A stretch of DNA of 63,975 nucleotides, counting the filler, from an uncultured bacterium (GTDB taxonomy: Bacteria > Hinthialibacterota > Hinthialibacteria > Hinthialibacterales > Hinthialibacteraceae), in the NCBI GenBank assembly GCA_964449065.1. It is 5 parts of 5 records of this genome, joined end to end, with 100 filler letters (N's around TTAATTAATTAA, not from the genome) between each part and the next. Parts side by side here need not be neighbours in the genome. Positions count along the whole stretch, not along the records: positions 51,428 to 63,975 come from CAYVAZ010000142.1; 4 more parts are not named here. One strand, given 5' to 3'. Position 1 is the first letter of the stretch, and each line of letters opens with the position of its first letter. The position numbers and the translations under genes are program-made. Below the pieces are notes generated by a model. That model was not told where the DNA came from, did not search any database, and worked only from the letters and a program-made list of their open reading frames with translations. Shown piece after piece: positions 1-63,975 of this stretch.

Positions 1-55
1 CCTAGGACACCGCCCTTTCACGGCGGTAACAGGGGTTCGACTCCCCTTGGGGACG
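1..55 (+). tRNA. tRNA-Glu(TTC), 5' end cut off by the window edge
   Basis: Canonical Glu 3' part: GGAC-A-CCGCC-CTTTCAC-GGCGG-TAAC-AGGGG-TTCGACT-CCCCT-TGGGGAC-G. 4-nt variable loop; CCA not encoded. Confidence 0.93.
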
Positions 56-6513: not shown

Positions 6514-8400
6514 ATGAAATTGCCGCAATGGATATTCTGTTGTCTCCTCACACTCTCCGGTTGCGTTTTAGGGGGATGTTCCGCCAAATACCACCGCGAA
6601 TCGGTGGATAAAACCACCTACCAAACCATTCTAGAAACGCAAAAAGCGGGTCTTGGCAAAACCGAACCCTTTACCATCAATAACCCGGAAGAAGAACTCC
6701 GCCAGCGTATCATGAAAACACAGCCAATCCTCTTGTCTCACCCCGCTTCCGCCGGCACGCAATATCTCGAACCGATTGAACACTGGCCCAATGACGGCTA
6801 TTTGCAGTCTGCAACGTTCACGCAAGATGTTACCGATGAAACGCAAGTTATCATATTGGATTTGCTTGAAGCCTTGCAAGTCGCCGCCCGAAACAGCCGC
6901 GAATACCAAAGCCAAAAAGAGCAGGTGTTTCAAGAAGCTCTCAATTTGGATTTGGCGCGCGAAGAGTTCCGCACCAGTTTCTTCGCGGCGTGGAGCACCC
7001 AATACGAACTGGACCGCACCGAATCCGATGACCCCGGCGGGATTGTCACCGAAGGTATCGCAAACAACTTTTCTCCTTCTTTCAGCAAAACCTTTTTATC
7101 GGGCGCCCAGCTTACCGCCCAATTAGGATGGGATCTTGCCATGCTGCTCAGTCCCCGCGATATTTCATCCAGAGGGTTATTCGGCGACGCGTCTCTCACG
7201 ATCCCGTTATTGCGCGGGGCGGGTAGGCACATCGTCGCCGAACCCCTAACCCAAGCCCAGCGCGACATGGTCTACGCCATCTATGAATTTGAACGATTCA
7301 AACGTTCGTTCGTGGTTGATATTGCTGATCAATATCTTTCGGTTTTACAACGCTTGGATGAAGTCAACAACGCCGAACAAAATTACCGCAGCCTTATTCT
7401 ATCCGCGCGCCGCGCTCAAATGGATTTACGCCAGGGCGATATTTCTCCGGTACAGGTCGATCAAGCCTACCAGGATGAGCTCTCGGCGCGTAACAACTGG
7501 GTGAGTTCTTTGCAGGAGTTTGCCGGTGCGATGGATGCGTTCAAACTGCAACTGGGCTTACCGGTTGAAGCCAATATCGAATTGAGCCGTGAAGATTTTG
7601 ACCGTCTCGCGCAATCCTCCGAAAGCATTCTCGCGGACGCCACCACGTTCGACCGGGAAGAAGATATTCCGGCAGCCGACGCGGAAATTGTGTTGGATGA
7701 TCCCACCGGTCTGGAAGCCGGGCGCTTTGATATCAGCCCCAGAGAAGCAATCGAACTGGCGTTTCAAAACCGCCTTGATTTGCGCGTTACGCAAGGCCAA
7801 GTCTATGACGCCCAGCGCCAGGTTGTCATTGCCGCGGATGGACTGAAGACGGAGATTACTTTATTCGGCAGCGCATCGACCGGGCAGGGGCGGGGAATCG
7901 GTTCCGCCGGTCAACTCGACGCGGAAGTTTTGGACTTGGACAGCGGATTCTATACCGCACTCTTAAACATCGATCTCCCCACCGAACGCACCGCCGAAGC
8001 CATCGCCTTCCGCCGCAGCTACATCGGTCTCGAACAGTCCGTGCGTTCATTACAGGATTTAGAGGACAGCATTAAGCTGCAAATTCGCAATCATCTGCGT
8101 ACACTACAAGAAGAAAGAGAAAGTCTGCGCATTCAAGCACGTTCTGTCAATTTGGCGGAACAGCGCGTCGAAAGCACAAACCTAAACCTGCAAGCCGGGC
8201 GGATTGAAATCCGCGACCTGCTCGAAGCACAAGAAGATTTATTATCCGCCCAAAACGCCTTAACCGCGGCCATGGTCAATTTCCGCATCGCCGAACTGGA
8301 ATTGCAGCGGGATTTAGGCGTTCTCGAAGTTAACCACGAAGGCATTTGGACAGAATATAATCCGGAGGTATTAAACAATGAAACAAGAGAAATCAGGTAA
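6514..8400 (+). CDS. TolC family outer-membrane efflux lipoprotein
   Basis: Lipobox-like GGC; two OEP helical repeats (LDLLEALQVAARNSREYQ; RDLLEAQEDLLSAQNA). Confidence 0.88.
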   Translation: MKLPQWIFCCLLTLSGCVLGGCSAKYHRESVDKTTYQTILETQKAGLGKTEPFTINNPEEELRQRIMKTQPILLSHPASAGTQYLEPIEHWPNDGYLQSATFTQDVTDETQVIILDLLEALQVAARNSREYQSQKEQVFQEALNLDLAREEFRTSFFAAWSTQYELDRTESDDPGGIVTEGIANNFSPSFSKTFLSGAQLTAQLGWDLAMLLSPRDISSRGLFGDASLTIPLLRGAGRHIVAEPLTQAQRDMVYAIYEFERFKRSFVVDIADQYLSVLQRLDEVNNAEQNYRSLILSARRAQMDLRQGDISPVQVDQAYQDELSARNNWVSSLQEFAGAMDAFKLQLGLPVEANIELSREDFDRLAQSSESILADATTFDREEDIPAADAEIVLDDPTGLEAGRFDISPREAIELAFQNRLDLRVTQGQVYDAQRQVVIAADGLKTEITLFGSASTGQGRGIGSAGQLDAEVLDLDSGFYTALLNIDLPTERTAEAIAFRRSYIGLEQSVRSLQDLEDSIKLQIRNHLRTLQEERESLRIQARSVNLAEQRVESTNLNLQAGRIEIRDLLEAQEDLLSAQNALTAAMVNFRIAELELQRDLGVLEVNHEGIWTEYNPEVLNNETREIR

Positions 8401-51427: not shown

Positions 51428-51539
51428 TTATTCCTCCCGAACCCTCACCCCGTCCCTCTCCCGGTGGGCGAGGGCGATAGATTCAGCGATCAATTAGAAA
51501 AACGGGTATATCATAATATGTAGTGCGTAACATGAGTTA
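51428..51539. mobile_element. MITE family C, partial copy at a contig start
   Basis: Reverse complement of 49364-49467; ends TGCGTAACATGAGTTA. Confidence 0.75.
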
Positions 51540-51569
51540 GTAAATATCATTTATTTATTGGAGATACAA

Positions 51570-51797
51570 ATGCCGCAAACAACATCCCGGTTTCAAGAAT
51601 TGATTGATTCCATAGAAACGATGGCGGATGAAGACCAGGCCATGCTGGTGAACATCATTCAAAAACGTCTGCAAGAAAAACGCCGCCAAGCATTGATAGA
51701 AGAAATCCGCGATGCAGAAGACGAATACCGCCATGGCAGGACATCCACAGGCAGCGTGGCGGACTTCATGAAAGATGTGGAGTCATGCGAAGATTAA
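51570..51797 (+). CDS. Putative antitoxin
   Basis: Small protein (FQELIDSIE...RRQALIEEIRDA..EY..G...GSVADFM) overlapping a RelE-family toxin. Confidence 0.78.
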   Translation: MPQTTSRFQELIDSIETMADEDQAMLVNIIQKRLQEKRRQALIEEIRDAEDEYRHGRTSTGSVADFMKDVESCED

Positions 51798-52069
51798 TTT
51801 GGCAAAAACAAGTTGTCAAACAAGTCAAAAAACTTATTCGCCAAAAACCGTTTCTAAAACCAAAAATTGAAAACACACTTTCACAACTGGTAGACTCTCC
51901 TTTTGCCCCTTCACTAAACACGCACAAATTAAAAGGGGGATTGAAAGCCTGCTGGTCATGCACAGTTGATTTTGAAACCCGAATCGTTTTTCGGTTTGTC
52001 CCATCAGAAGAATCGGATGAAGACGATATCTTACTGTTGGCTATCAGAGACCATGATACGATATACTAA
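51785..52069 (+). CDS. RelE/YafQ-family mRNA interferase toxin
   Basis: PFAPSLNTHKLKGGLK.CWSC.V....RIVF......ILLLAI.DHD.IY. Confidence 0.85.
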   Translation: MRRLIWQKQVVKQVKKLIRQKPFLKPKIENTLSQLVDSPFAPSLNTHKLKGGLKACWSCTVDFETRIVFRFVPSEESDEDDILLLAIRDHDTIY

Positions 52070-52350
52070 TACACTGACAGGCAAAACGTGTTGGGTAAGG
52101 TGAAAACTCTGTGGCTCGGCGGGCGTCTCGCCCTCCCAAGCGCTCGTGCTTGATTAAGGATTGAATGTATTCATTTGCTTTTTTTAAACCGCGAATAAAC
52201 GCGAATGAACGCGAATAAAGGCACGGTTTATTTTCTCTCTAAGCGTAGGGATAGTTTGGCTCGCAATTTTACGCGAATCCGTGCTTCCGGCTCGGCGGGA
52301 GCCTCGCCCTCCCAATTCAACCCGACATTAAGACTCTGTCAGACGACTAG
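52066..52350. mobile_element. MITE-like element, family B, complete copy
   Basis: CTAATACACTGACAG ... CTGTCAGACGACTAG imperfect TIRs with YTAR ends; carries two REP 25-mers and a CGCGAAT decamer array. Confidence 0.65.
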
Positions 52351-52609
52351 TAGTTCATCAAGGCTTACATGATGGGTGATAACTTAGCCATCTATATGAA
52401 ATGAATGGGATCAGTCATTCACAAGCGTTAGCGCAGTGCCACAACCCCCTTGCATAAGGGGGTGGAGCCGTAGGCTCCGGGGGATTTTGCGTAGTTGGAA
52501 GCGTGTTTCGATCCCCCCTAGCCCCCCTTAACAAGGGGAGAAAACAAACGATGTTCCAGGTTCTTCAAACGGATAGCCAGCCGCCATTTTTTGATTGACA
52601 GTCTACTGT
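52347..52609. mobile_element. MITE-like element, family A, copy 2
   Basis: Matches 6137-6376; shares the CTAG at 52347-52350 with the family B element. Confidence 0.75.
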
Positions 52610-52709
52610 TACTTAGAGTTTTAAAAGTGAATTGTGATTGATCTTAGGCAAAGAGAATTCGAAAGATGCGGCAAGGGGAAAAACGATATCTCCATGCCAC
52701 TCCTTTTCT

Positions 52710-53759
52710 CTAAATCCACCCCTGCAATTCTCTCCGAATGAGGCCGCTGAGAAAATCGATATGCGGGTCGGTATCGTTCAAACAGGGGATGTAGTGAAAC
52801 TCCCCGCCGCCGTTTGCCTCAAACAACTCCCGGCCTGCCATATTCAGTTCTTCCAGGGTTTCGATGCATTCGGCCACAAACGCGGGTGACACAACCGCGA
52901 TTCGCTTAACGCCCTCTTTCGCGAGCCGTTCGATGGTTTTGTCGGTATAAGGCTCCAGCCATTTTTCCGGCCCAAAGCGGGATTGAAAGGTGTTGATCCA
53001 ACGGTCTTCAGGCCAGTCCAGTTTTTCCCGTACAAGGCGCGAGGTCTTGCAGCAGAAGCAGTGATACGGGTCGCCCTGCATCAGATAGCGTTTGGGCAAT
53101 CCGTGAAACGAAGTGAGGATGTATTCCGGCTCATGCTCCAATCCATCCAAATTGTTTCGAATTGAATTGGCAAGGATTTCAATATACTTCGGATCATCAT
53201 GCCATCCCGGCGCGGTGCGGATGGCCGGCTGCCGGTTTAGGGTTTTGAGGTAATCGAACGCGGCATCATACGCCGTCGCGGTGGTCGTGGCGCTGTATTG
53301 CGGGTACAGCGCGAAGAATAAGATTTTGTTGCATCCTTGATTGATCAATTTCAAAATCGACTCTTTGGTCGATGGAAAACCATAGCGCATCCCCCATTCA
53401 AACACGATGTTGGGGTGATCCTTAAACTTCGCGCTGATCTTCTCGCACTGTGAGCGCGTAATGGTACGCAAAGGTGATTCGTTCCACTCTTGATCCCAAA
53501 CCTTTTTGTACGCCTCACCGGTTTTGAAGGGGCGGCGCGTAAGAATCATCCCCTGCAGGATGGGCTGCCAAAACCAGCCGGGGTAATCAATCACCCGTTT
53601 GTCGCTTAAAAACTCGCTGAGATAGCGGCGGATCGTCCAATAATCGGTCGCTTCCGGCGTCCCCAAATTCAGCAGCAGCACGCCGGTCTTCGGCGCATGA
53701 ACTTCCGGGTGGCCTTCCGGCAAATGCGTTTGCGTTGTTTCCGGTACAGCATCAGACAT
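52710..53759 (-). CDS. hemH: Ferrochelatase
   Basis: LLNLGTP, EFLSD.RV, SPL, MRYG.P, LYPQYS, SFHGLP, FQSRFG..WL.P, ETLEE, PCLND. Confidence 0.95.
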   Translation of the reverse strand: MSDAVPETTQTHLPEGHPEVHAPKTGVLLLNLGTPEATDYWTIRRYLSEFLSDKRVIDYPGWFWQPILQGMILTRRPFKTGEAYKKVWDQEWNESPLRTITRSQCEKISAKFKDHPNIVFEWGMRYGFPSTKESILKLINQGCNKILFFALYPQYSATTTATAYDAAFDYLKTLNRQPAIRTAPGWHDDPKYIEILANSIRNNLDGLEHEPEYILTSFHGLPKRYLMQGDPYHCFCCKTSRLVREKLDWPEDRWINTFQSRFGPEKWLEPYTDKTIERLAKEGVKRIAVVSPAFVAECIETLEELNMAGRELFEANGGGEFHYIPCLNDTDPHIDFLSGLIRRELQGWI

Positions 53760-54061
53760 TAATGTTCTCCCAAAATAGCCTCTTTTTCGCCTCTGGGCGG
53801 AAAGCCCGTCATCCAATACGGTTTCGTTGCCTTAATGGATTTACGTGAAATCATAGTTGGTGAATATCCACAGGCAATGTTAAAAGTACTTTTCGGTTGA
53901 AAAATCCGCGGGACATCAGTCTTCAGTATTTTAAGTTCTTACAAGTTGTATGGATGAAGCGCTGAATTCAGTAGGTAGAATGCTGGAAGTACAATCAAGA
54001 AGGACTACAGTTCGCCATCGTCTCTGGTTAACAAAACCCGCGATGGTAAAATAGACCAATC

Positions 54062-55888
54062 ATGAACATTCCTATCCTAACGTTTCTTCTTTGCATGTGG
54101 TTTGCTTTCACTTTTCTACTGTGCAATCTCACCATCTGGCTTTACGTGAGCAATCCACATTTCTATGACGGCTTCCCTGGAATGATCGTAGGTTGCTTGA
54201 TATTGTCTGGAATCATGGGTGGGCTAGTGTTATTAGCTTTGTTGAACCTAACGGCATTGATTCCCCGCATAAAAGCAGTGGTTCAATCCCGCAAGCGTTT
54301 GATAAAATCAACCGGCATTACCGTTTCCCTTATTTGGCTTTTGATCCCCGCCGCTTTGTGCATAATCAGCTCGCGGCAACAAACGATACGGCTTGCCAAT
54401 CCACCCAAACTCATCGTCATCGGTGTAGATGCCGCCATTTGGGATTTACTCAACCCTTGGATGGAACAAGGTAAGCTTCCTCATCTGCAAAGTGTCAAAG
54501 CGAAGGGCGTTTCTTCTACGTTGCGCAGCATGGACCCCATGCGCTCGCCCAGCTTATGGACCAGCATCTGCACCGGCGTTTCTCCGGAACGGCATGGGAT
54601 CAACGGATTCTTTTCTACCCGCGCCGATTTAAAAACACCCCGGATTTGGGACATAATGACCGCCAACGGCCTATCAGTCGGTTTATTCAACTGGTTGTTG
54701 ACCAATCCGCCTGAGTCCAAATTCGCGTTTTGCATACCAGCATGGCTAGCCGCCACGGCAGAAACCCACCCCATGCAGTATCACTTTTTGCAAGAACTCA
54801 ATCTGGATCAAGAATTGGGCGGCGGGCGCTTGGATGTCAGCGAAGCGTTAACCCAGGCGGCGTTGAACGGCGTGCGGGTGAAAAGCCTGGAAAACATGAC
54901 GCGCTTCTATCTGCAAGACTTTTTTGGTTTGGATGATGAAGCGCGTTTAGCCCGAAAAATGCTGGCTGAGGTCCCCATGCAAACCGATGTATTTCTTCAT
55001 CTGCTGCAGCAACACCAGCCGGATGTTGCTGCTATTACTTTTTACGGTTCGGATAAATTGGCGCACCGTTTTTGGCATTATATGCAGCCGAAAGCCTTTT
55101 CGAATCATGACTATCAGCACAAGCCGGAGTATGAAAGTGTGATCGAACACTATTACATCCAAACCGATCAAGCCATTGGCAGGATCCTCGACGCAATTAG
55201 CAATGAAACAACCGTGGTTTTGCTTTCCGATCACGGCATGAAAGCCGATCCCGCCATGCCGCGGCAGTTCTTTTTAGATCCATCCGCACTCCTCAATCTT
55301 ATGAATCTTGAGTCGTTGTTTCGCCATCAAACCATCATGCGGCGCACCGTATTGAAACCGGCGATGGATGACATACTGTTGCTGCAAGAAACCCAATCCG
55401 CGCTGCAATCCTTCCGCTTTCCGAATGGTGATACGGTATTTCGTGTGATTATTGAGGACGGTAAGATCGTATTGCGCACCAATTTTTCTCTGACTTGGAA
55501 TGATGGTTCTCCTCTTTTAACAGAAGATCACATTCAATATGCCGGACAAATCATCCCCATCGAGGAATTATTCTTCTCACGAACGTTTTCCGGAACGCAT
55601 GATCTTAATGGAGTTTTGATGATGCAGGGACCTCATATCAAACAAGAAGTAAGCATCTCGCCGCCGCACTTGCTGGATGTCGCGCCGACATTGTTGTTCA
55701 TGATGAACCAACCCATCAGCAAAACGTTAGAAGGAACGGTAATAAAGGAAGCGTTTCAACCCGGCTGGTGGACAACCCAAACCGTTCAACTTGTAGATTC
55801 CTATGAACAAATTCCCTATAAAATCTCCGCCCCAAAAACCAACCAAGCATTGCTTGAACGATTGCGCAGTATGGGGTATGTTGAATAG
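54062..55888 (+). CDS. Membrane-anchored alkaline phosphatase superfamily protein (type I phosphodiesterase / NPP-like)
   Basis: Three N-terminal TMs; IGVDAA, SP.LWTSI.TG..P.HGI, LSDHG, SGTH, DVAPT, ERLRSMGY. Confidence 0.87.
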   Translation: MNIPILTFLLCMWFAFTFLLCNLTIWLYVSNPHFYDGFPGMIVGCLILSGIMGGLVLLALLNLTALIPRIKAVVQSRKRLIKSTGITVSLIWLLIPAALCIISSRQQTIRLANPPKLIVIGVDAAIWDLLNPWMEQGKLPHLQSVKAKGVSSTLRSMDPMRSPSLWTSICTGVSPERHGINGFFSTRADLKTPRIWDIMTANGLSVGLFNWLLTNPPESKFAFCIPAWLAATAETHPMQYHFLQELNLDQELGGGRLDVSEALTQAALNGVRVKSLENMTRFYLQDFFGLDDEARLARKMLAEVPMQTDVFLHLLQQHQPDVAAITFYGSDKLAHRFWHYMQPKAFSNHDYQHKPEYESVIEHYYIQTDQAIGRILDAISNETTVVLLSDHGMKADPAMPRQFFLDPSALLNLMNLESLFRHQTIMRRTVLKPAMDDILLLQETQSALQSFRFPNGDTVFRVIIEDGKIVLRTNFSLTWNDGSPLLTEDHIQYAGQIIPIEELFFSRTFSGTHDLNGVLMMQGPHIKQEVSISPPHLLDVAPTLLFMMNQPISKTLEGTVIKEAFQPGWWTTQTVQLVDSYEQIPYKISAPKTNQALLERLRSMGYVE

Positions 55889-55908
55889 AAATATGAGAGA
55901 GTATGATC

Positions 55909-56133
55909 ATGGCTACAGAAAACGAAACCAAAACCAAGCGTGAATGGCTGCGCTGCTCGTCCGTCGTTATTTGTTTTTATGCAATTGTTTACTTTTTACT
56001 GGGCGGAAAACTGTTGGGATATTTAAATCCTTGGCTCATCGGAGCCGTGATTGTACTCGCGGTTGTTGATATTTTGGTTTTACGCAAGTATATTGACCGT
56101 TTTATGGATCAAGACGACGACCAGTTGCCATAA
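55909..56133 (+). CDS. Small two-TM membrane protein
   Basis: Two hydrophobic helices; follows the phosphodiesterase gene. Confidence 0.55.
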   Translation: MATENETKTKREWLRCSSVVICFYAIVYFLLGGKLLGYLNPWLIGAVIVLAVVDILVLRKYIDRFMDQDDDQLP

Positions 56134-56420
56134 TAATTGTGGGAGGGAGATTCTTCCGCGGCGGGGGGTACTTATTCGCGTACCCAATAGAGGAAAAGGC
56201 AGCCGCGCCCCCAAACACGAATGTAAAACCATTTCCATTTAGGATTGTTCATTAAGCGCGGCGGCAGGCCTCAACGAAGGAAAGACTCAGCGTTTTTCTT
56301 TCCCGACAATCCTAAATAACGTCGGTATAAAAAGTACTTTGATTTGTATACATTCGCGAGCATTCGTGTTTCAATTTATAGTTGTCTAGCCGGACATATT
56401 TTCTGATTAAGGGAGGAATC

Positions 56421-57425
56421 ATGCCGCATCCAATTCAAACCACAGTCGTAGGCAGTTATCCTGTGCCGCAGTGGCTTATGGGCAATCCATCGCGCTTGGC
56501 GCTGCGCGACGCCATTATGGCGGTACTGCACACGCAGGAACTTGCCGGGCTTGATGTCATCGCCGACGGTGAGTTGAACCGATTTGATCCCAATCATCCC
56601 GAAACCAATGGAATGATCGATTATTTTGTCAAGCGTATGAGCGGAGTGAAGACGGCTTACACGCTGACCGACCTCATCAAGTTTCGCGAAGATCACGGCG
56701 TGGATTACCGCAAAGAACCCGCCGCCATCATTGTCGATAAAATAGAAGAAGGCACACTCAACCTACCCGGCGATTTTGATTTCATCCGCCCGTTGACCAA
56801 ATGCAAACTGAAGTTTACCTGTACCGGCCCGCACATGCTGGCGAAAGTCGTGACCAACCAACATTATAGCGATACGGCGGCACTGGCGATGGATATTGCG
56901 GAAGTGCTACGCAAGCAATTGCAGAACATCGATGCCGAAATCATCCAACTGGACGAAGCCAACATCAGCGGCCACCCCGAAGATGCCGATTGGGCCGCCG
57001 AAGCGCTCAATCACGTATTGGACGGCATCAAAGGCGAACGCGGCCTGCATATCTGCTTCGGAAACTATGGCGGCCAAACCATCCAAAAAGGCTTTTGGAA
57101 AGACTTGGCACCGTTCCTGAACAAACTTAAAGTCAACCATTTGATTTTAGAATTCGCCCGCCGCGGTTACGCCGAACTCGATGACATGAAAGAAATCGAT
57201 CCCAAAATCGGATTGGGTATCGGCGTGGTGGATATCAAAGACAATGAGGTTGAATCCCCCGATTTGATCGCCGAACGCATCGAAAAAATCGTCTCAACCT
57301 GCGGCGAAGGACGACTGCACTACATCCACCCCGATTGCGGCTTTTGGATGTTGCAGCGCAGCGTTGCCGACCGCAAGATGGAAGCGCTCGTAAAAGGAAG
57401 GAATGTGTACCTTGGCAACCAGTAA
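56421..57425 (+). CDS. Cobalamin-independent methionine synthase II family (MetE C-terminal domain only)
   Basis: TTVVGSYP, QE.AGLDVI.DGE, IQLDE, HICFGN, PDCG zinc ligands; GGGAGG RBS. Confidence 0.88.
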   Translation: MPHPIQTTVVGSYPVPQWLMGNPSRLALRDAIMAVLHTQELAGLDVIADGELNRFDPNHPETNGMIDYFVKRMSGVKTAYTLTDLIKFREDHGVDYRKEPAAIIVDKIEEGTLNLPGDFDFIRPLTKCKLKFTCTGPHMLAKVVTNQHYSDTAALAMDIAEVLRKQLQNIDAEIIQLDEANISGHPEDADWAAEALNHVLDGIKGERGLHICFGNYGGQTIQKGFWKDLAPFLNKLKVNHLILEFARRGYAELDDMKEIDPKIGLGIGVVDIKDNEVESPDLIAERIEKIVSTCGEGRLHYIHPDCGFWMLQRSVADRKMEALVKGRNVYLGNQ

Positions 57426-58533
57426 ACCGGCCGTTCAACGGTATCCATCTGAATACAGCCGGCATGTTGATGAGCAAACCGGGGCGGTGATTCATCAGCT
57501 CACCCAAGCCGAATGCGTCAACCATCCGCCCTACTTTCTGACGTCCGCCTTTCCCCCGGATGGCAAGAGCGTGATCTTCACTTCCTACCGTTCCGGTAGC
57601 GCGCAACTGCATGAAGTGGATTTTCCCGACGGCGAAATTCGCCGGTTGACGGATGTCGAAAATTTCCATCCCTATTCCGCGATTTTGTCTCCGGATGGCA
57701 GTGAAGTGTTCTATACCCGTGGCCCGGTCATCGAAGCCATCAACCGAAATGGTTTATCCACCCGTACTCTGTATGAATTACCCGGCGCGCAGTTTGGCGA
57801 ATGTGCCCAAAGCCCAGACGGCAAGTGGCTGGTGACCGCGCTGAAAAAAGACGGCAAAAGCGGTGTCGCCGTGGCGGCAGTCGATGGCAGCGGCGGTGAA
57901 GTGATTCTTGAGTTTGAGCGTACCATCATCCATCCGCAATTTCATTCACTCGATAGCGATTGGATTGAATTTGCCGGAGACCCGGCCCCGCGCATGTTCC
58001 GCATCAAGCGCGACGGCAGCAACCTGGAATGCCTCTACGAGCATGACAACAACGAATTCGTTGTCCACGAAACCTTTTTGGGAAAAACCGGCGACTTGGC
58101 ATTTACGGTATGGCCGTTTGCGCTCAAGCGTATGGACTGGAATACGAAAAAAATTTCCACAATTGCCAATTTCAATGCCTGGCATATCACCCCCAATCAG
58201 GCGGGCACCAAAATTCTCTGTGATACCAATCATCCCGACATCGGCCTTCAGTTGGTGGATGTTGCTTCCGGTGAGAAGAAAACCATTTGCCATCCAAAAA
58301 GTTCCAACGGGGGGTCGCAATGGAAAACATCCCGCTATGCCGTTGCCGAAGACTGGGCCGCCGCGCGTGATCAGAAGGATGAATCCCTCAGCTGGATGGA
58401 GATGAAAGTCGATACCGTCTACGGCCCGCAATGGACGCACCCCCACCCCGCCTTCAGCCATGATGAGAGCATGGCCACCTACACATCCGATGCAAGCGGC
58501 TATCCCCAAGTGTATGTAGTCGAACTAAAATAA
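57403..58533 (+). CDS. Oligogalacturonate lyase / TolB-like beta-propeller protein
   Basis: DEQTGAVIHQLT....NHPPYF....F..DG, HPQF, VHETF, HPHPAFS. Start may be TTG 57412; overlaps the upstream gene. Confidence 0.8.
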   Translation: MCTLATSKPAVQRYPSEYSRHVDEQTGAVIHQLTQAECVNHPPYFLTSAFPPDGKSVIFTSYRSGSAQLHEVDFPDGEIRRLTDVENFHPYSAILSPDGSEVFYTRGPVIEAINRNGLSTRTLYELPGAQFGECAQSPDGKWLVTALKKDGKSGVAVAAVDGSGGEVILEFERTIIHPQFHSLDSDWIEFAGDPAPRMFRIKRDGSNLECLYEHDNNEFVVHETFLGKTGDLAFTVWPFALKRMDWNTKKISTIANFNAWHITPNQAGTKILCDTNHPDIGLQLVDVASGEKKTICHPKSSNGGSQWKTSRYAVAEDWAAARDQKDESLSWMEMKVDTVYGPQWTHPHPAFSHDESMATYTSDASGYPQVYVVELK

Positions 58534-58971
58534 CCCTTGACATCCGTAACAAGAAACGGGCACCGAACCCTCATAATCCTGAAAGAATCTAGCGCAGAAG
58601 AAACAAAATGCCGGTGGAGTGGGTCGCGCTTTGTTGACCCACCGGATCATTAATTGGTAACAGTTAAACGAACTCGATTCCTCTTCTGTTTCCTGGAAGA
58701 TATCTTCCTTGGCCAGTGCCATTGACGTAAGGAATCAGTCTAAAATAGCAAAACCTTTTCTCCGCCAAGTTGAAGGAGAGGCCCGCATGGCGGGGGAGAG
58801 TGCGACTACGTGTTATAGAAGCAAATAAGTTTAATCGCTACATCAATGACATTGGGAGTTGGAGGGAGTAGTTTCATAGCGCGCTCCGGTATTTGTTGAT
58901 ATATTGATAACCAATATTAGTGCGACACACGCATTGGTTTACAGTGAATAGCTGCTATCAAAGGAGTCATC

Positions 58972-59226
58972 ATGGAATCGATTTCTTATTCAGCAGTTCG
59001 GTATAAATTGAAGGAAACCATGAATAAAGTGTGCGATGACCGTGAACCGGTTATTATTACCCGTCGGGATGGGGACGCGGTCGTGATGTTATCATTAGAG
59101 GAATACAACGCCTTGGATGAAACAGCCCACCTAACACGCAGCCCCAAAAACCGCAAACGTTTGGAAACAGCATTGTCAGAATTCAACCAAGGAAAGTACG
59201 AAGAAATAAAACTCATTAAATCATAA
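58972..59226 (+). CDS. yefM: Phd/YefM antitoxin
   Basis: ISYSAVR..L...MNKVCDDREPVIITR....AVVMLSLEEYN.L.ETAHL.RSP.N..RL. Confidence 0.92.
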   Translation: MESISYSAVRYKLKETMNKVCDDREPVIITRRDGDAVVMLSLEEYNALDETAHLTRSPKNRKRLETALSEFNQGKYEEIKLIKS

Positions 59227-59481
59227 AACGGCGCATTTGTTTGTAGAGGATGCCTGGCAGGATTATGAGTAATGGCAGGCGGAATACAAACGTGTTCTGA
59301 AACGGATACACGAACGGATTAAAGAGTACAACGCCACCCAACAACCGGTAAAGGCAATCCGGAATGATTGCGAGATAATTTGAAAGGTTGGTGGTCCCGT
59401 CGTATCACTCAAGAACACCGTTCGGTTTACAGTTTTGATAGTGAGTCCATCATCATTATGCAATGCTGATAGCACTATTAA
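59223..59481 (+). pseudogene. yoeB: Txe/YoeB toxin pseudogene
   Basis: F.EDAWQDYE*WQ...KRI..I.E /frameshift/ RHP..GKGNPE*L..NLKGWWSRRITQEHR.VY....IIIMQC**HY. Confidence 0.85.
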
Positions 59482-59530
59482 CAGTAAAACCATGTGGTTG
59501 TGAATAATGCAAACTTCTTTATGAAAACCC

Positions 59531-60661
59531 TCACAGCTTTATAAACACTTTATGCTTAAACAAGAAATACAGCACATACCACTGCGCCGCGGTGACGCCG
59601 ATGCCGTGCAATACTTCGAAGAGTATGATCCAATCAAATGACTGCATCCATCCGAGTGCGAATTCGGTGAAGATGCGCAGATTTTCGTCGATCCAATGAT
59701 AAAACAATTGCGTCATCACATAGGCGAAGATTGAGTTCATCCCGATCACTACCAAAAACCAGCTCCATGATTTGCAGCCCAGCATATCGTTAATATAGTA
59801 GAAAAACGCTAGAAAGAGAATGCACCATCCAGTGGAATACAATCCGAATGATACCGTCCAGATCCGTTTGATCATCGGGCTGATGTCTGTGAAAGCCAAA
59901 AGCCAGCCAACAATAATCAACGCGATAGCGGAAATGATGAAATCAGTAAGAATGGTTATCTTGGGCAGTCCGCTGCCGGCTAACTTTCCGCACATCATCC
60001 CCGCAACAATGGTTGAGAATGAGGGCACGGCGTTGGATATCGCCCACATGCCGCCGTTGATCTCATAGCCGATGATGCCCATTTGATAGAGCCATTGGTC
60101 GATCTTTTGCCCCAGGGTGGTTACCTCATTCGGGGTGCGGTCAAAAGGTGTTTCTCCGCTGAAGGATATCCATAAGATGTGCCATACCACCAGCACGATG
60201 GCTGCTATAGCCCCTTGTGAAAGATAACGCATCCCCACCATGAGTGAGGCAAAGATATAGCATATCGCGATCTGCGGCAGCACATTGATGAGCGTGTTGG
60301 TGACCTCGCCGTTGTGAATCGAAGTAAAGATCACGGCTACAAACCACAGCATAAAGCAGCGTTTAAGCACCAATAAAAAGTTTTTCGATTCGGATATCCC
60401 CAGCGATTTGCGTTTGGCGAACGAGAAGGGCATGGCCATGCCGACCATAAAGGTAAACGCGGGTTGGATGAGGTCCCAATACACGCAGCCTTCCCACTGC
60501 ACGTGGTGGGTATGGACATCAATGATATTGAGCCAAGTGCCTTCGAAGATGCTGAAGTTGAATCCTTCCGAAATCAGTGTAAGCATAATCAGTCCGCGAA
60601 AGGCATCCAGCGAAGTCAGGCGTGTGGTGAGAACATCCGGTTTGGCATCGGTCATGAGCAT
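59531..60661 (-). CDS. Heparan-alpha-glucosaminide N-acetyltransferase-like membrane acyltransferase (DUF5009-like)
   Basis: RLTSLDAFRG, H.QWEG...WDLIQPAF.FMVG, KRIWT.SF, GMNSI.AY. Confidence 0.85.
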   Translation of the reverse strand: MLMTDAKPDVLTTRLTSLDAFRGLIMLTLISEGFNFSIFEGTWLNIIDVHTHHVQWEGCVYWDLIQPAFTFMVGMAMPFSFAKRKSLGISESKNFLLVLKRCFMLWFVAVIFTSIHNGEVTNTLINVLPQIAICYIFASLMVGMRYLSQGAIAAIVLVVWHILWISFSGETPFDRTPNEVTTLGQKIDQWLYQMGIIGYEINGGMWAISNAVPSFSTIVAGMMCGKLAGSGLPKITILTDFIISAIALIIVGWLLAFTDISPMIKRIWTVSFGLYSTGWCILFLAFFYYINDMLGCKSWSWFLVVIGMNSIFAYVMTQLFYHWIDENLRIFTEFALGWMQSFDWIILFEVLHGIGVTAAQWYVLYFLFKHKVFIKL

Positions 60662-60867
60662 CCCTCCTGCATAACAGTCGAATGCCCATCATACAATATT
60701 GGGGAGTGCGTTTATAGTTGTGATGCAAACATTAGCTCGTAGACTATCTCTTATTTACCCGCATGGTTTGGGGGTACAAATGATAATGGAACCCATAACG
60801 ACCTCAACCAATCTGTTCTGTTTTTCATGCATTTAGGAAGGGTGAACGCCCGGTAAGCCGCAAGAAT

Positions 60868-61200
60868 TCATTGCCTTGTTTCCCTCGACAACACCACTGA
60901 TGCCCATTGGTTGATGCTTTTACCGCTTCCTTGCGCGGCAGCCGCTACTGCCGCGTGCAGTTCGGGGGGTACGCGCAGCATCATCTTGCCGGAATACGGT
61001 TGGTTCGGTTCCTGCCCCAGCCGCTTACACGCCTCCAAATAATCATCCACCGCTTGCCGAAAATGGGTTTCCAACTCATCCACCGTCACGCCATGAAACG
61101 ACACAATATCCCGAATGCCGATAACATGCCCCACAAAGATGTTGTCTTGCGCGTCATACTCAACACGTGCTGAATATCCTCTGTAATTCATGGCATTCAT
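60868..61200 (-). CDS. hicB: HicB antitoxin
   Basis: MNYRGYSARVEYD...FVG.V.GI.DIVSFHG.TV.EL...F..AVDDYL...YSGKMMLRVPPELH. Confidence 0.93.
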   Translation of the reverse strand: MNAMNYRGYSARVEYDAQDNIFVGHVIGIRDIVSFHGVTVDELETHFRQAVDDYLEACKRLGQEPNQPYSGKMMLRVPPELHAAVAAAAQGSGKSINQWASVVLSRETRQ

Positions 61201-61451
61201 GGCTCTTCACCCAATTGTTGCAAAAACCGTCTCACATCTTTCACGCGGTATCGCAGGGCCTCTTTTTGTGGGTGAGGCCGGTGAAAGACGGCCCGCAATC
61301 CATCTTTTTCAAACGTCACCGATGAACCGGAACCTTCAATGACCCTGTACCCAATTGCAACCAATTGCGATTCAATCTCTTTTCAAACAATAGTCCCATT
61401 CACAGGTTCAGAAAATATCGCTTCCAACGTTTTACGCTGCTTTCGGTTCAT
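61197..61451 (-). pseudogene. hicA: HicA toxin with an in-frame TGA at codon 23
   Basis: MNRKQRKTLEAIFSEPVNGTIV*KEIES...EGSGSSV......FHRPHPQKEALRYRVK; TGA at 61385-61383, where homologs usually have Trp. Confidence 0.85.
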
Positions 61452-61457
61452 GCCTAA

Positions 61458-61478
61458 TGATATCACAATTCGATATCA
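61458..61478. promoter_or_regulatory. Putative HicB operator
   Basis: TGATATC-N7-GATATCA palindrome immediately upstream of hicA. Confidence 0.65.
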
Positions 61479-61828
61479 TCGCAATTGGAAAAACGAATGA
61501 AAAAACGATGGCATTGGAACTCTTTACTTTAAAAAAAGCATCGTCTGAAAAATGAAGGGTCCCGAAACTGCCTCAACTCATCCTACTCATGGCTAAGATT
61601 GTTGGATAGGTAACAGGATTTTCAAAAACAATAATATTTTAATTTAATGAACGGATATTTTAAATAGAAAAACTTAAGACATAAATAATAATATAATTAA
61701 AAACTTTAGGATATTTCAAATAAAAAAATAGTTTAATATAAACCTAGTATTATGAATACTTTAAAACTTATATTTAAGTTATTCTTTATAAAATAATCAC
61801 TAATTTTTATTTTGTCTTATATTTCGTC

Positions 61829-61857
61829 TTGACAATTTTGTTTTGATGGTGTAGAAT
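61829..61857 (+). promoter_or_regulatory. Sigma70-type promoter
   Basis: TTGACA-N17-TAGAAT with an AT-rich upstream tract. Confidence 0.7.
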
Positions 61858-61926
61858 TTCGATATAAAATAACTGGTAATACTGTATTCCGAAAGTGGAA
61901 CGGTCACACAAAGTAAGGGAATTAAA

Positions 61927-62655
61927 ATGGAAGAGAAAAAATCACCAACAACGCCTTATATGTCTTTTAAAACATTTCAAAATGTACTTGACAGATATGT
62001 TGACCAAGATATTCCATCGCATATTGATAGTTCGCTTTTTCCTAATATGTCAGGTGGCACTTTTTCACAACTAACTGGCACATTAAGGTTTTTTGGATTG
62101 ATAAATGGAAACAATGAGACAAGCAAAGAATTCTTCGGTAATTTAGTTGATCCGAACACGCGTAAAGAAACATTAAAAACGCTTTTGAAGAATCATTATG
62201 AGCCTTTGTTTTCATTCAACTTAAAAACGACTACGCCTAAGGTTTTAAGAGATACTTTTTATGAAAATATGAATGCACCGTCTTCTGTACAAAAAAATGC
62301 GCTCAACTTTTTTGTCCAAGCTGCGCAGTATGCAGGTATTGAGATTTCTCCAAATGTAGTGAAAGGTATACGTAATTTATCTTCATCGACTAAAAAACGT
62401 GTGTCTACAAAGCCTAAAACAAAAAAAGAGAAAAGGGCAAATGAAAAACCAGTAGATAATAGTGATAGTTTTGGTGATTTGAAGGTAATACCAATTCCAT
62501 TAGGAATTAGTAAATATTGGAAAATTGGTATCACAGAAGAGTATAATGATCGTGATTTAGAACTTTTTTTAACTATAGCTAAATCAGTTTTAAAGCAAGA
62601 ATTGGAAAATCAAAATGAAGAATTAGAAGATGAAGAGGATGAGGAAGATATTTAA
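61927..62655 (+). CDS. DUF5343-like hypothetical protein, AT-rich
   Basis: PYMSFKTF..VLD.....IPSHID.S....MSGGT.SQL...LRFFGLI; basic linker and acidic tail. Family assigned from recall. Confidence 0.7.
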   Translation: MEEKKSPTTPYMSFKTFQNVLDRYVDQDIPSHIDSSLFPNMSGGTFSQLTGTLRFFGLINGNNETSKEFFGNLVDPNTRKETLKTLLKNHYEPLFSFNLKTTTPKVLRDTFYENMNAPSSVQKNALNFFVQAAQYAGIEISPNVVKGIRNLSSSTKKRVSTKPKTKKEKRANEKPVDNSDSFGDLKVIPIPLGISKYWKIGITEEYNDRDLELFLTIAKSVLKQELENQNEELEDEEDEEDI

Positions 62656-62690
62656 AAAGCCGCGATTGGTCAGAATCGCGGCTTTTCATT
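62655..62690 (+). terminator. Intrinsic terminator-like hairpin
   Basis: AAAAGCCGCGATT-GGTCAG-AATCGCGGCTTTT. Confidence 0.75.
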
Positions 62691-62763
62691 ACGCCCGTAG
62701 CTTAATGGATAAAGCAACTCTCTTTCGAAGGGTCAATTCCCGGTTCGAGTCCGGGCGGGCGTA
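62691..62763 (+). tRNA. Atypical tRNA, anticodon TTC (Glu), Arg-like body
   Basis: Complete cloverleaf: ACGCCCG/CGGGCGT; D arm GCTT-AATGGATA-AAGC; AC arm ACTCT-CTTTCGA-AGGGT; variable loop CAATT; T arm CCCGG-TTCGAGT-CCGGG; A73; no CCA. Confidence 0.8.
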
Positions 62764-62823
62764 ATTGTATTCTACACTAATTTTTACTTTATGTAACGTA
62801 AAAAATGCATATAAATATAAAAA

Positions 62824-63975
62824 CTACGCCAACAGTTTTTCTATCACATGCCCCGCCACATCCGTCAGGCGANNNNNNNNNNCCCTGAAAGCGGTAGGTT
62901 AGTTGTAAGTGGTCAAGCCCCAGCAGATGCAGGATGGTTGCGTGAATATCGTGCATGTGCACCGGGTCTTTGGTGGGGCTGAAGCCGAATTCATCGGTCT
63001 CACCGATTGTGATTCCCGGTTTGATACCGCCGCCCGCGAACCACATGGTTGAGCATTCGATATGGTGGTTGCGCCCAACGGTATCGCGTACTTCGCCCAT
63101 CGGGGTGCGGCCGAACTCGCCGCCCCATACCACCAGGGTGGAATCCAGCAGCCCGCGCTGTTTTAAATCTTTCACCAACGCGGCGCATCCCTGGTCGATA
63201 TCCTTGCAGACTTCATCCAACGAATCATCCAAGTTTTCCGTGCGGCCGCCGTGGTGGTCCCAGTTGGTATGGTAGAGTTGAATAAAGCGGCTTCCCCGTT
63301 CCACCAGCCTCCGTGCCAATAAGCAGTTGTTGGCAAACGACGGCTCTCCTGGAGTGATACCGTACATTTCCAATGTTTCTTGCGATTCATCCGAAATGTC
63401 TATTAAATCGGGGGCGCTGCTTTGCATCTTGTATGCCATCTCATACGAGGCAATCCGGGTGCTGATTTCTGGGTCGCCGGTTTCCGCCAGATGGCGCAGG
63501 TTGAGTTCTTTGATGGCATCGATGGAGCGCCGCTGCCGTTCCGGTGTGACGCCTTCCGGGTTCTTCAAATATAAGATTGGTTCGCTGCCCTGCCGAAACG
63601 GAACGCCTTGAAAGGTGGTCGGCAAAAAGCCGCTTCCCCATAATGGCGAGCCTCCTCGCGGGCCGCGCGGACCCGATTGCAGAACAACAAAGCCGGGCAA
63701 ATCTTCCGCTTCACTGCCAATGCCATACGTCACCCATGCCCCCATACTCGGTCTGCCGAACTGCTGCGAGCCGGTATTGGCAAACAACTTCGCCGGGGCG
63801 TGGTTGAAGACTTCTGTCTTAACCGTTTTCACAAACGAAATATCATCCACTATTGTTGATGTGTAAGGCAAACATTCCGAAACCCACGCGCCGCTGCTGC
63901 CGTATTGCAGGAACTTCCGGCGGGTTCCCAACAACTTGGGCGTTTCTTTCGCGAAGGAATCCATAAACGCAAATC
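62824..63975 (-). CDS. DUF1501 domain protein (5' end outside the window; 10-N gap near the 3' end)
   Basis: NHAPA, GRPSMGAWV.YG.G, CLLARRLVERG.RF, WDHH, WGGEFGRTP, RLTDVAG..IEKLLA*. Confidence 0.92.

Follow-up and report, generated by a model that had tools for sequence, protein, structure and literature searches.

Arginine-type tRNA genes with foreign anticodons and adjacent putative antisense RNA genes: a candidate RNA-only toxin-antitoxin module

The tRNA gene at positions 62,691–62,763 of the analysed stretch of DNA (the window; 63,975 nt, several contigs joined by N runs, with the tRNA-bearing part at 51,428–63,975 being CAYVAZ010000142.1) belongs to a family of arginine-type tRNAs that, judged from pattern matches, is rare and scattered, and in which many members lie beside a putative small-RNA gene matching their own anticodon arm. 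This predicted architecture of a tRNA plus a cognate antisense gene is well supported and constitutes the new element; the literature searched, in which subscription journals were mostly outside coverage, offered no account of a tRNA paired with an antisense gene of its own. We put forward as a hypothesis that the family tRNA is a toxin, and give even chances to a reading in which it would be charged by arginyl-tRNA synthetase (ArgRS), mistranslate and be silenced by its cognate antisense RNA. The fuller proposal, an addiction module of about 200 bases that needs no protein and occurs in many phyla, with an ArgRS-hijacking tRNA, an anticodon-arm small RNA and a window copy that is controlled by read-through and silenced in cis, comes close to an even chance without quite reaching it.

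Structure and identity elements of the window tRNA

ARAGORN, Rfam, fold, alignment and covariation all supported an Arg-type body with a UUC anticodon on the plus strand, a putative RNA toxin. ARAGORN called a tRNA-Glu(TTC) at 62,690–62,764 and RF00005 scored 61.9 bits over 62,691–62,763, which together with the sequence itself confirmed the original prediction of a non-canonical tRNA with a Glu anticodon on an Arg-like body with G37. The acceptor stem is an intact 7 bp beginning with A1-U72 and C2-G71, A73 follows, and CCA is not encoded. The D arm has a GCUU/AAGC stem and the loop AAUGGAUA, which includes A20, whereas the anticodon arm has a single U-G pair in its stem and the loop C32-U33-U34-U35-C36-G37-A38, followed by A39; the variable loop is 5 nt long. 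The predicted fold was a cloverleaf (z −2.0) in which three extra pairs lengthen the acceptor stem, so that sequence and fold bore out the earlier description of stems pairing with one G-U and continuing for three pairs. The gene is a 7/5 cloverleaf, and no 8/4 or 9/3 allo-tRNA fold was found. At gathering score, Rfam reported no family besides RF00005 in the window, and no C4/CI-type match.

An assembly artefact was rejected as the source of the gene because its sequence is unchanged in contigs from two DNA runs of a single study that may also underlie the assembly. A tRNA fragment at an integration site was also rejected: such fragments are partial copies of host tRNA genes in the available text of PMC9897764, whereas the window gene encodes a full cloverleaf, no partial host copy was found, and none of the 42 tRNA genes of the genome is an identical host tRNA. 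The Arg(TCG) register was discarded for its worse stem, in agreement with the original prediction. A 77% match in a relative proved to be an ordinary Arg(TCT).

Among the canonical Arg determinants, A20 and A/G73 are present, but C35 with G/U36 is not; the gene has U35-C36, and its CG falls at 36-37. A20 is described as the strongest bacterial Arg determinant, and U34-U35-C36 as Glu determinants, in the accessible part of PMC9976931. The window tRNA is thus like tRNA-Arg in A20, A73 and an acceptor stem resembling those of the tRNA-Arg genes of its own genome, and unlike it in lacking C35. The closest annotated phage matches were tRNA-Arg in 9 of 11 records (76–78% identity). With canonical tRNA-Glu it shares the anticodon determinant U34-U35-C36, but G1-C72, U2-A71, the absence of nt 47 and A37 are all four missing, in line with the loss of Glu determinants that had been predicted. 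The differences previously listed from the tRNA-Glu at window positions 1–55 stand; that gene is not complete, being only the 3' part of a canonical tRNA-Glu truncated by the contig end.

The original prediction had also offered a backup tRNA-Glu evading anticodon nucleases, or a substrate for a second GluRS. U34-U35-C36 and the location of the gene in an island would suit these ideas, but the four missing determinants make them very improbable, and the genome, which is 87% complete, shows one GluRS, the second class Ic gene being its one GlnRS. Furthermore, near-identical bodies carry TTC, TAC or GAC (L104, L041 and L084), so the anticodon varies freely and Glu is one of its settings; neither idea is supported.

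Family distribution and antisense partners

The family pattern combined an Arg-type D-loop with C36-G37-A38, C36-G37 having been built into the first patterns, and the family trait is a CG at 36-37 rather than 35-36 together with the Arg-type D-loop A20. It matched 11 viral and 81 genome stretches, and 91 were aligned; the first, narrow pattern gave no matches in viral contigs. Titles of the matches span Actinomycetota, Bacillota, Chloroflexota, Omnitrophota, Planctomycetota, Pseudomonadota and others. The pattern of the window tRNA occurred in 1 of 35 genomes of its phylum, this genome only (a second odd tRNA of the same genome, L001, carries G32 and lies outside the pattern of that scan), and a scan of 400 other genomes from the phylum to which one match belongs yielded no occurrence of the family pattern. 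A lineage-wide isotype, including the widespread Glu isotype that the original prediction had named as evidence against itself, was rejected on this rarity. The opposite outcome, a gene with no conserved homologs or an att remnant, is contradicted by the full cloverleaf and by the homolog search, which returned this rare family of 91 aligned similar genes, viral and genomic.

Members carry a dozen anticodons and were named Val, Ala, Asp or Gly by ARAGORN; TTC is among the rarest, with 0 of the 91 pattern matches. The cloverleaf of the 91-row alignment was 94% paired, and covariation, calculated with 24 non-A39 control rows included, was 0.693 versus 0.179 when shuffled and at most 0.170 when slid. 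Pair 31-39 was the weakest (unpaired in 34 of 90). A39, which the pattern does not require, was present in 67 rows, and omission of the near-duplicates L012, L080 and L086 left 64 A39 rows to be tested. Ten Asp(GTC) rows (nine from Planctomycetota, one from Nealsonbacteria) and three Gly(ACC) rows were housekeeping-like or point variants and were treated as controls, not members. The nine Planctomycetota tRNA-Asp(GTC) genes (L016, L030, L044, L045, L061, L062, L078, L082 and L083) have an Arg-type D-loop, A20 and G37, and two of them adjoin tRNA-Val(TAC); if housekeeping, they would need some guard against ArgRS. L103, a metagenome match, was set aside as an 8-nt-loop variant in the Arg(TCG) register.

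Partners, meaning sequences that repeat or complement the anticodon arm of the gene in question, were sought among repeats within about 300 nt on each side (extended to about 600 nt at six loci) with a seed of 9 nt; partner and acceptor tallies were counted by hand from tool outputs. Partners were present in 29 of the 64 A39 rows (3/6, 5/16, 9/20 and 12/22 by batch), in 1 of 24 non-A39 rows and in 0 of 6 ordinary plasmid tRNAs, although many rows are kin, so that the 29 are not independent events and the tallies overstate independence. The matches were 9 to 28 nt long and extended across ten different anticodons. No anticodon-arm partner was found at seed 9 in 35 of the 64 A39 rows, 14 of which have a full acceptor stem, and a rescan of 14 loci at seed 7 added only L069. 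L102 and L104, two of the three metagenome matches with a TTC loop, likewise gave no anticodon partner. When rows were grouped by acceptor pairs (by eye, from the alignment), partners accompanied 26 of 40 genes with 7/7 pairs, 2 of 8 with 6/7 and 1 of 16 with five or fewer, and this association with intact stems points to charging. An acceptor of only 3–5 pairs was seen in L020, L021, L064, L072, L089, L052, L059, L028, L124 and L132; the D, anticodon and T arms of this group are intact, most of its members are partner-less, many are in Bacillota or phages, and they are possibly detoxified copies or serve a separate use.

L001, one of the 42 tRNA genes of the genome, has an Arg(ACG)-like body with an AAC anticodon (contig C159, 8047–8120) and shares U33-N-N-C36-G37-A38-A39 with the window tRNA. 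At a distance of 125 nt upstream, 15 nt of its anticodon arm recur exactly, and on the opposite strand this copy falls between the sole promoter-like site (8000–7971) and the sole terminator-like site (7948–7924) in 400 nt, both tool-called on the minus strand, forming a putative small-RNA gene that is about 45 nt long and complementary to the tRNA's anticodon arm. The tRNA is enclosed by a perfect 13-bp inverted repeat, and L018 is arranged in the same way, its repeat being 15 bp long. From their translations, we take the neighbours of L001 to be replication, VirD4-like, MobC and relaxase genes. By its predicted elements, L001 is a complete cassette (7918–8162) on a plasmid-like contig; a plasmid search with it gave zero matches. 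Relaxase, MobC and VirD4-like neighbours are annotated at L150 and, from translations, presumably also flank L018, while the neighbours of L010, L005 and L047 are presumably integrase, resolvase or repressor-like. Of the two matches in the plasmid search with the window tRNA, L150 was a family member with 6/7 acceptor pairs and no partner, and the other was not a tRNA; the search with L120 gave six matches, all ordinary tRNAs.

A second promoter, partner and terminator were tool-called in L001 and L076 and recognised by eye in L060, L087, L085, L040, L027, L051, L047 and L018. The usual order was promoter, tRNA, second promoter, complement a few bases past the start, and terminator (L076, L060, L087, L085, L040, L027 and L047). 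Same-strand copies (L001 and L018) correspond to an antisense unit encoded on the other strand, and in L051 the antisense unit comes first, followed by a terminator and then a tRNA without its own promoter. Predicted pairing in L076 spans the acceptor, D and anticodon arms. In the loci read, the partner is a putative separate antisense small-RNA gene. Upstream copies in L053 (2253–2315) and L023 (1161–1188) resemble the tRNA throughout its 5' half, which hints that partial duplication of the tRNA gene may give rise to partners.

The same loci bear on whether the tRNA-shaped RNA is a stable antisense regulator like P1 C4 or P4 CI RNA and not a decoder, with the complementary unit as its target leader or sponge and the "anticodon" as a specificity code between elements. 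Several features agree with such a regulator: the complementary sequence changes in step with the loop, a 9-nt seed loop could be opened by A39 together with the weak 31-39 pair, copies with a broken acceptor stem are retained in several phages and in a plasmid, and L001 and L087 have a gene after the short unit (in the latter at 777–968, a small gene with two CxxC motifs that we take to resemble anti-TRAP). However, in L060, L040, L076 and L085 the short unit ends, by eye, in a terminator beyond which the sequence reads as an opposite-strand gene, and no same-strand gene was seen after it in these four loci; C4/CI targets lie in a leader within their own operon. Partners also accompany intact acceptor stems, and regulation gives no reason for A20 and a CG kept in two registers (described below); we consider this explanation unlikely.

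Organization of the window locus

The window tRNA lies in an AT-rich island (61,400–62,800; GC 0.23–0.35 versus 0.47 for the genome) between hicAB and a DUF1501 gene, and a search of 40 relatives for this island returned nothing except tRNA-level or short matches. Its neighbours are DUF5343, HicAB and DUF1501, with no ProRS paralog among them. Within 4 kb of the tRNA are the hicAB pair (60,868–61,364) and a YefM-type antitoxin followed by a probable partner gene (58,972–59,493). A 10-N gap at 62,873–62,882 inside the DUF1501 gene displaces its called end. The upstream neighbour, a DUF5343 gene (61,927–62,655, plus strand; 242 aa; PF17278, E 4e-7), has one distant homolog only and no relatives in viral contigs, and it is driven by the island's best sigma-70-like promoter (61,829–61,857, plus strand; 11/12 matches).

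A perfect 13-bp hairpin with an A-run before it and a T-run after it (62,655–62,686) ends 4 nt 5' of the tRNA; by eye it reads as a two-way intrinsic terminator, and the consensus scan for terminators returned no call there. With this hairpin between DUF5343 and the tRNA, the latter would be reached only by read-through from the promoter at 61,829–61,857, and the promoter scan found none directly upstream of the tRNA. A hairpin directly 5' of the tRNA is also present in about nine partner-less, unrelated family members, behind which no consistent antisense promoter was seen. At the other end of the gene, a weak promoter-like site on the minus strand (62,769–62,797; 9/12 matches), whose start would be at the tRNA 3' end, may fire across the tRNA to the hairpin and produce a candidate cis-antisense RNA; this is suggestive only, since the site is one of 12 in 1.5 kb of the locus (6.0 ± 2.4 in shuffles).

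A weak complement of the anticodon loop, noticed by eye in the DUF5343 leader (61,887–61,900, plus strand; 6-nt core 61,890–61,895), is possibly a decayed partner and possibly chance, and repeat searches of the locus did not recover it. No separate partner of at least 9 nt was found nearby and none was clear elsewhere in the genome, where one-mismatch 13-mers numbered 7 versus 3 in the control. A 16-nt direct repeat (15/16 identical; 61,798–61,813 and 62,775–62,790) brackets the promoter, DUF5343 and the tRNA, and may mark insertion ends or reflect chance in AT-rich sequence.

At the window locus, only the tRNA half is clearly visible. The terminator preceding the tRNA most likely keeps its level low, and a cis-antisense transcript perhaps silences it as well; the tRNA may be an orphan. 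A silent orphan left behind a terminator after losing its partner and promoter would agree with the lack of both and with a small island not seen in the 40 relatives examined. We nevertheless hold it improbable, given that all four stems are intact and that the terminator-then-tRNA arrangement recurs in unrelated members, with L051 adding a clear upstream partner.

Proposed toxin function and comparison with known systems

In the reading to which we give even chances, host ArgRS would charge the family tRNA through A20 and the slid CG, and the charged tRNA would insert Arg at GNN codons (GAA/GAG for the window tRNA), which would be toxic to the cell. The small RNA would neutralise the tRNA by base-pairing to its anticodon arm and in many cases on into the D arm, and the resulting RNA-only toxin-antitoxin pair would maintain plasmids, prophages and islands. 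In the fuller proposal, the free anticodon bases would have two roles, setting the aim of the toxin and acting as the key that matches it to its antidote. Among the options in the original prediction, a mis-decoding tRNA is the one that fits the family evidence.

The genome has one ArgRS, with an N-terminal domain. C36-G37 was reportedly described by Sissler in 1996 as an alternate Arg identity set, from yeast. CG or CU slid to 34-35 is accepted by E. coli and yeast ArgRS (PMC4742068), and yeast ArgRS charges tRNA-Asp when G37 is unmethylated (PMC9976931), according to the portions of these papers available. NAC members have A35-C36, given as ValRS determinants in the accessible part of PMC9976931, and could be charged with Val. 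As a check on our own filter, C36-A37 with a non-C35 anticodon was searched for, yielding two viral matches, both CGC (CG at 34-35) with intact acceptors and both with a partner (15 and 20 nt). Beyond these two, five CG-at-34-35 matches were Thr(CGT) with no partner (0/5), three of them lying within tRNA arrays; the tally of Thr(CGT) matches lacking an anticodon partner was seven, several being ordinary array genes. Thr(CGT) on an Arg-type D-loop occurs outside obvious arrays in L114, L118, L135 and L137, and L118 has a hairpin directly upstream, as at the window tRNA.

The tRNA may also be a toxin held by antisense RNA that acts otherwise than by Arg misincorporation, namely by tying up ArgRS, by stalling ribosomes while uncharged, or by causing +1 frameshifts through an unmethylated G37 and a loose 31-39 pair. 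Bacterial TrmD needs G36-G37. The cassette evidence applies here as it does to Arg misincorporation, pair 31-39 is weak, and C36 blocks arginylation in one yeast context (tRNA4-Arg, anticodon CGC included; PMC4742068, part of the text). Yet the two CGC members have A37 and still carry partners, and the link between partners and intact acceptors points to charging, which leaves these other routes quite unlikely.

If the toxin reading is true, the family would represent the third RNA-only toxin-antitoxin system and the first with a tRNA toxin. Synthetase "identity sliding", known from mutants, would be used in nature, and a portion of the unusual annotations of Val(AAC), Ala(AGC) and Gly(ACC) genes in bacteria would be explained as genes that do not decode the named amino acid. 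The cassette would also offer a natural, sequence-programmable off-switch for a tRNA.

Natural bacterial tRNAs with the body of one amino acid and several foreign anticodons are shared with tRNA-ProX of Streptomyces and Kitasatospora, which combines a Pro body with a ProRS paralog and is toxic in E. coli (PMC10404621, accessible part). Unlike tRNA-ProX, the present family has an Arg body, no synthetase was seen alongside, and a putative cognate small RNA is present. Allo-tRNAs are missense suppressors with 8/4 or 9/3 folds and Ser/Ala identity that are lethal when induced and lie near toxin-antitoxin loci (PMC5389517, accessible part). The accessible parts of both papers describe mistranslating bacterial tRNAs that are toxic in E. 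coli, and the word "antisense" is absent from them (PMC10404621, PMC5389517). Unlike allo-tRNAs, the tRNA described here is a plain 7/5 cloverleaf.

C4 of P1/P7 and the CI RNA of P4 are cloverleaf-like and have a loop complementary to neighbouring sequence of the same element; they are not true tRNAs, their target is the leader of the operon to which they belong, and their specificity varies between elements. Here, in contrast, the complement has its own putative promoter and terminator. TADB 3.0 lists two validated RNA-RNA systems, creTA and SdsR-RyeA, in neither of which the toxin is a tRNA (PMC10767807, accessible part). Like these type VIII systems, the present cassettes would comprise two adjacent small RNAs on the same or opposite strands, one of which is the proposed neutraliser; such putative pairs of adjacent complementary RNA genes occur in 29 of the 64 rows and in L001, and the window tRNA has no separate partner. 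CreT is said to sequester a tRNA, and CreA works through Cas proteins. Unlike in type VIII systems, the tRNA itself would be the toxin here.
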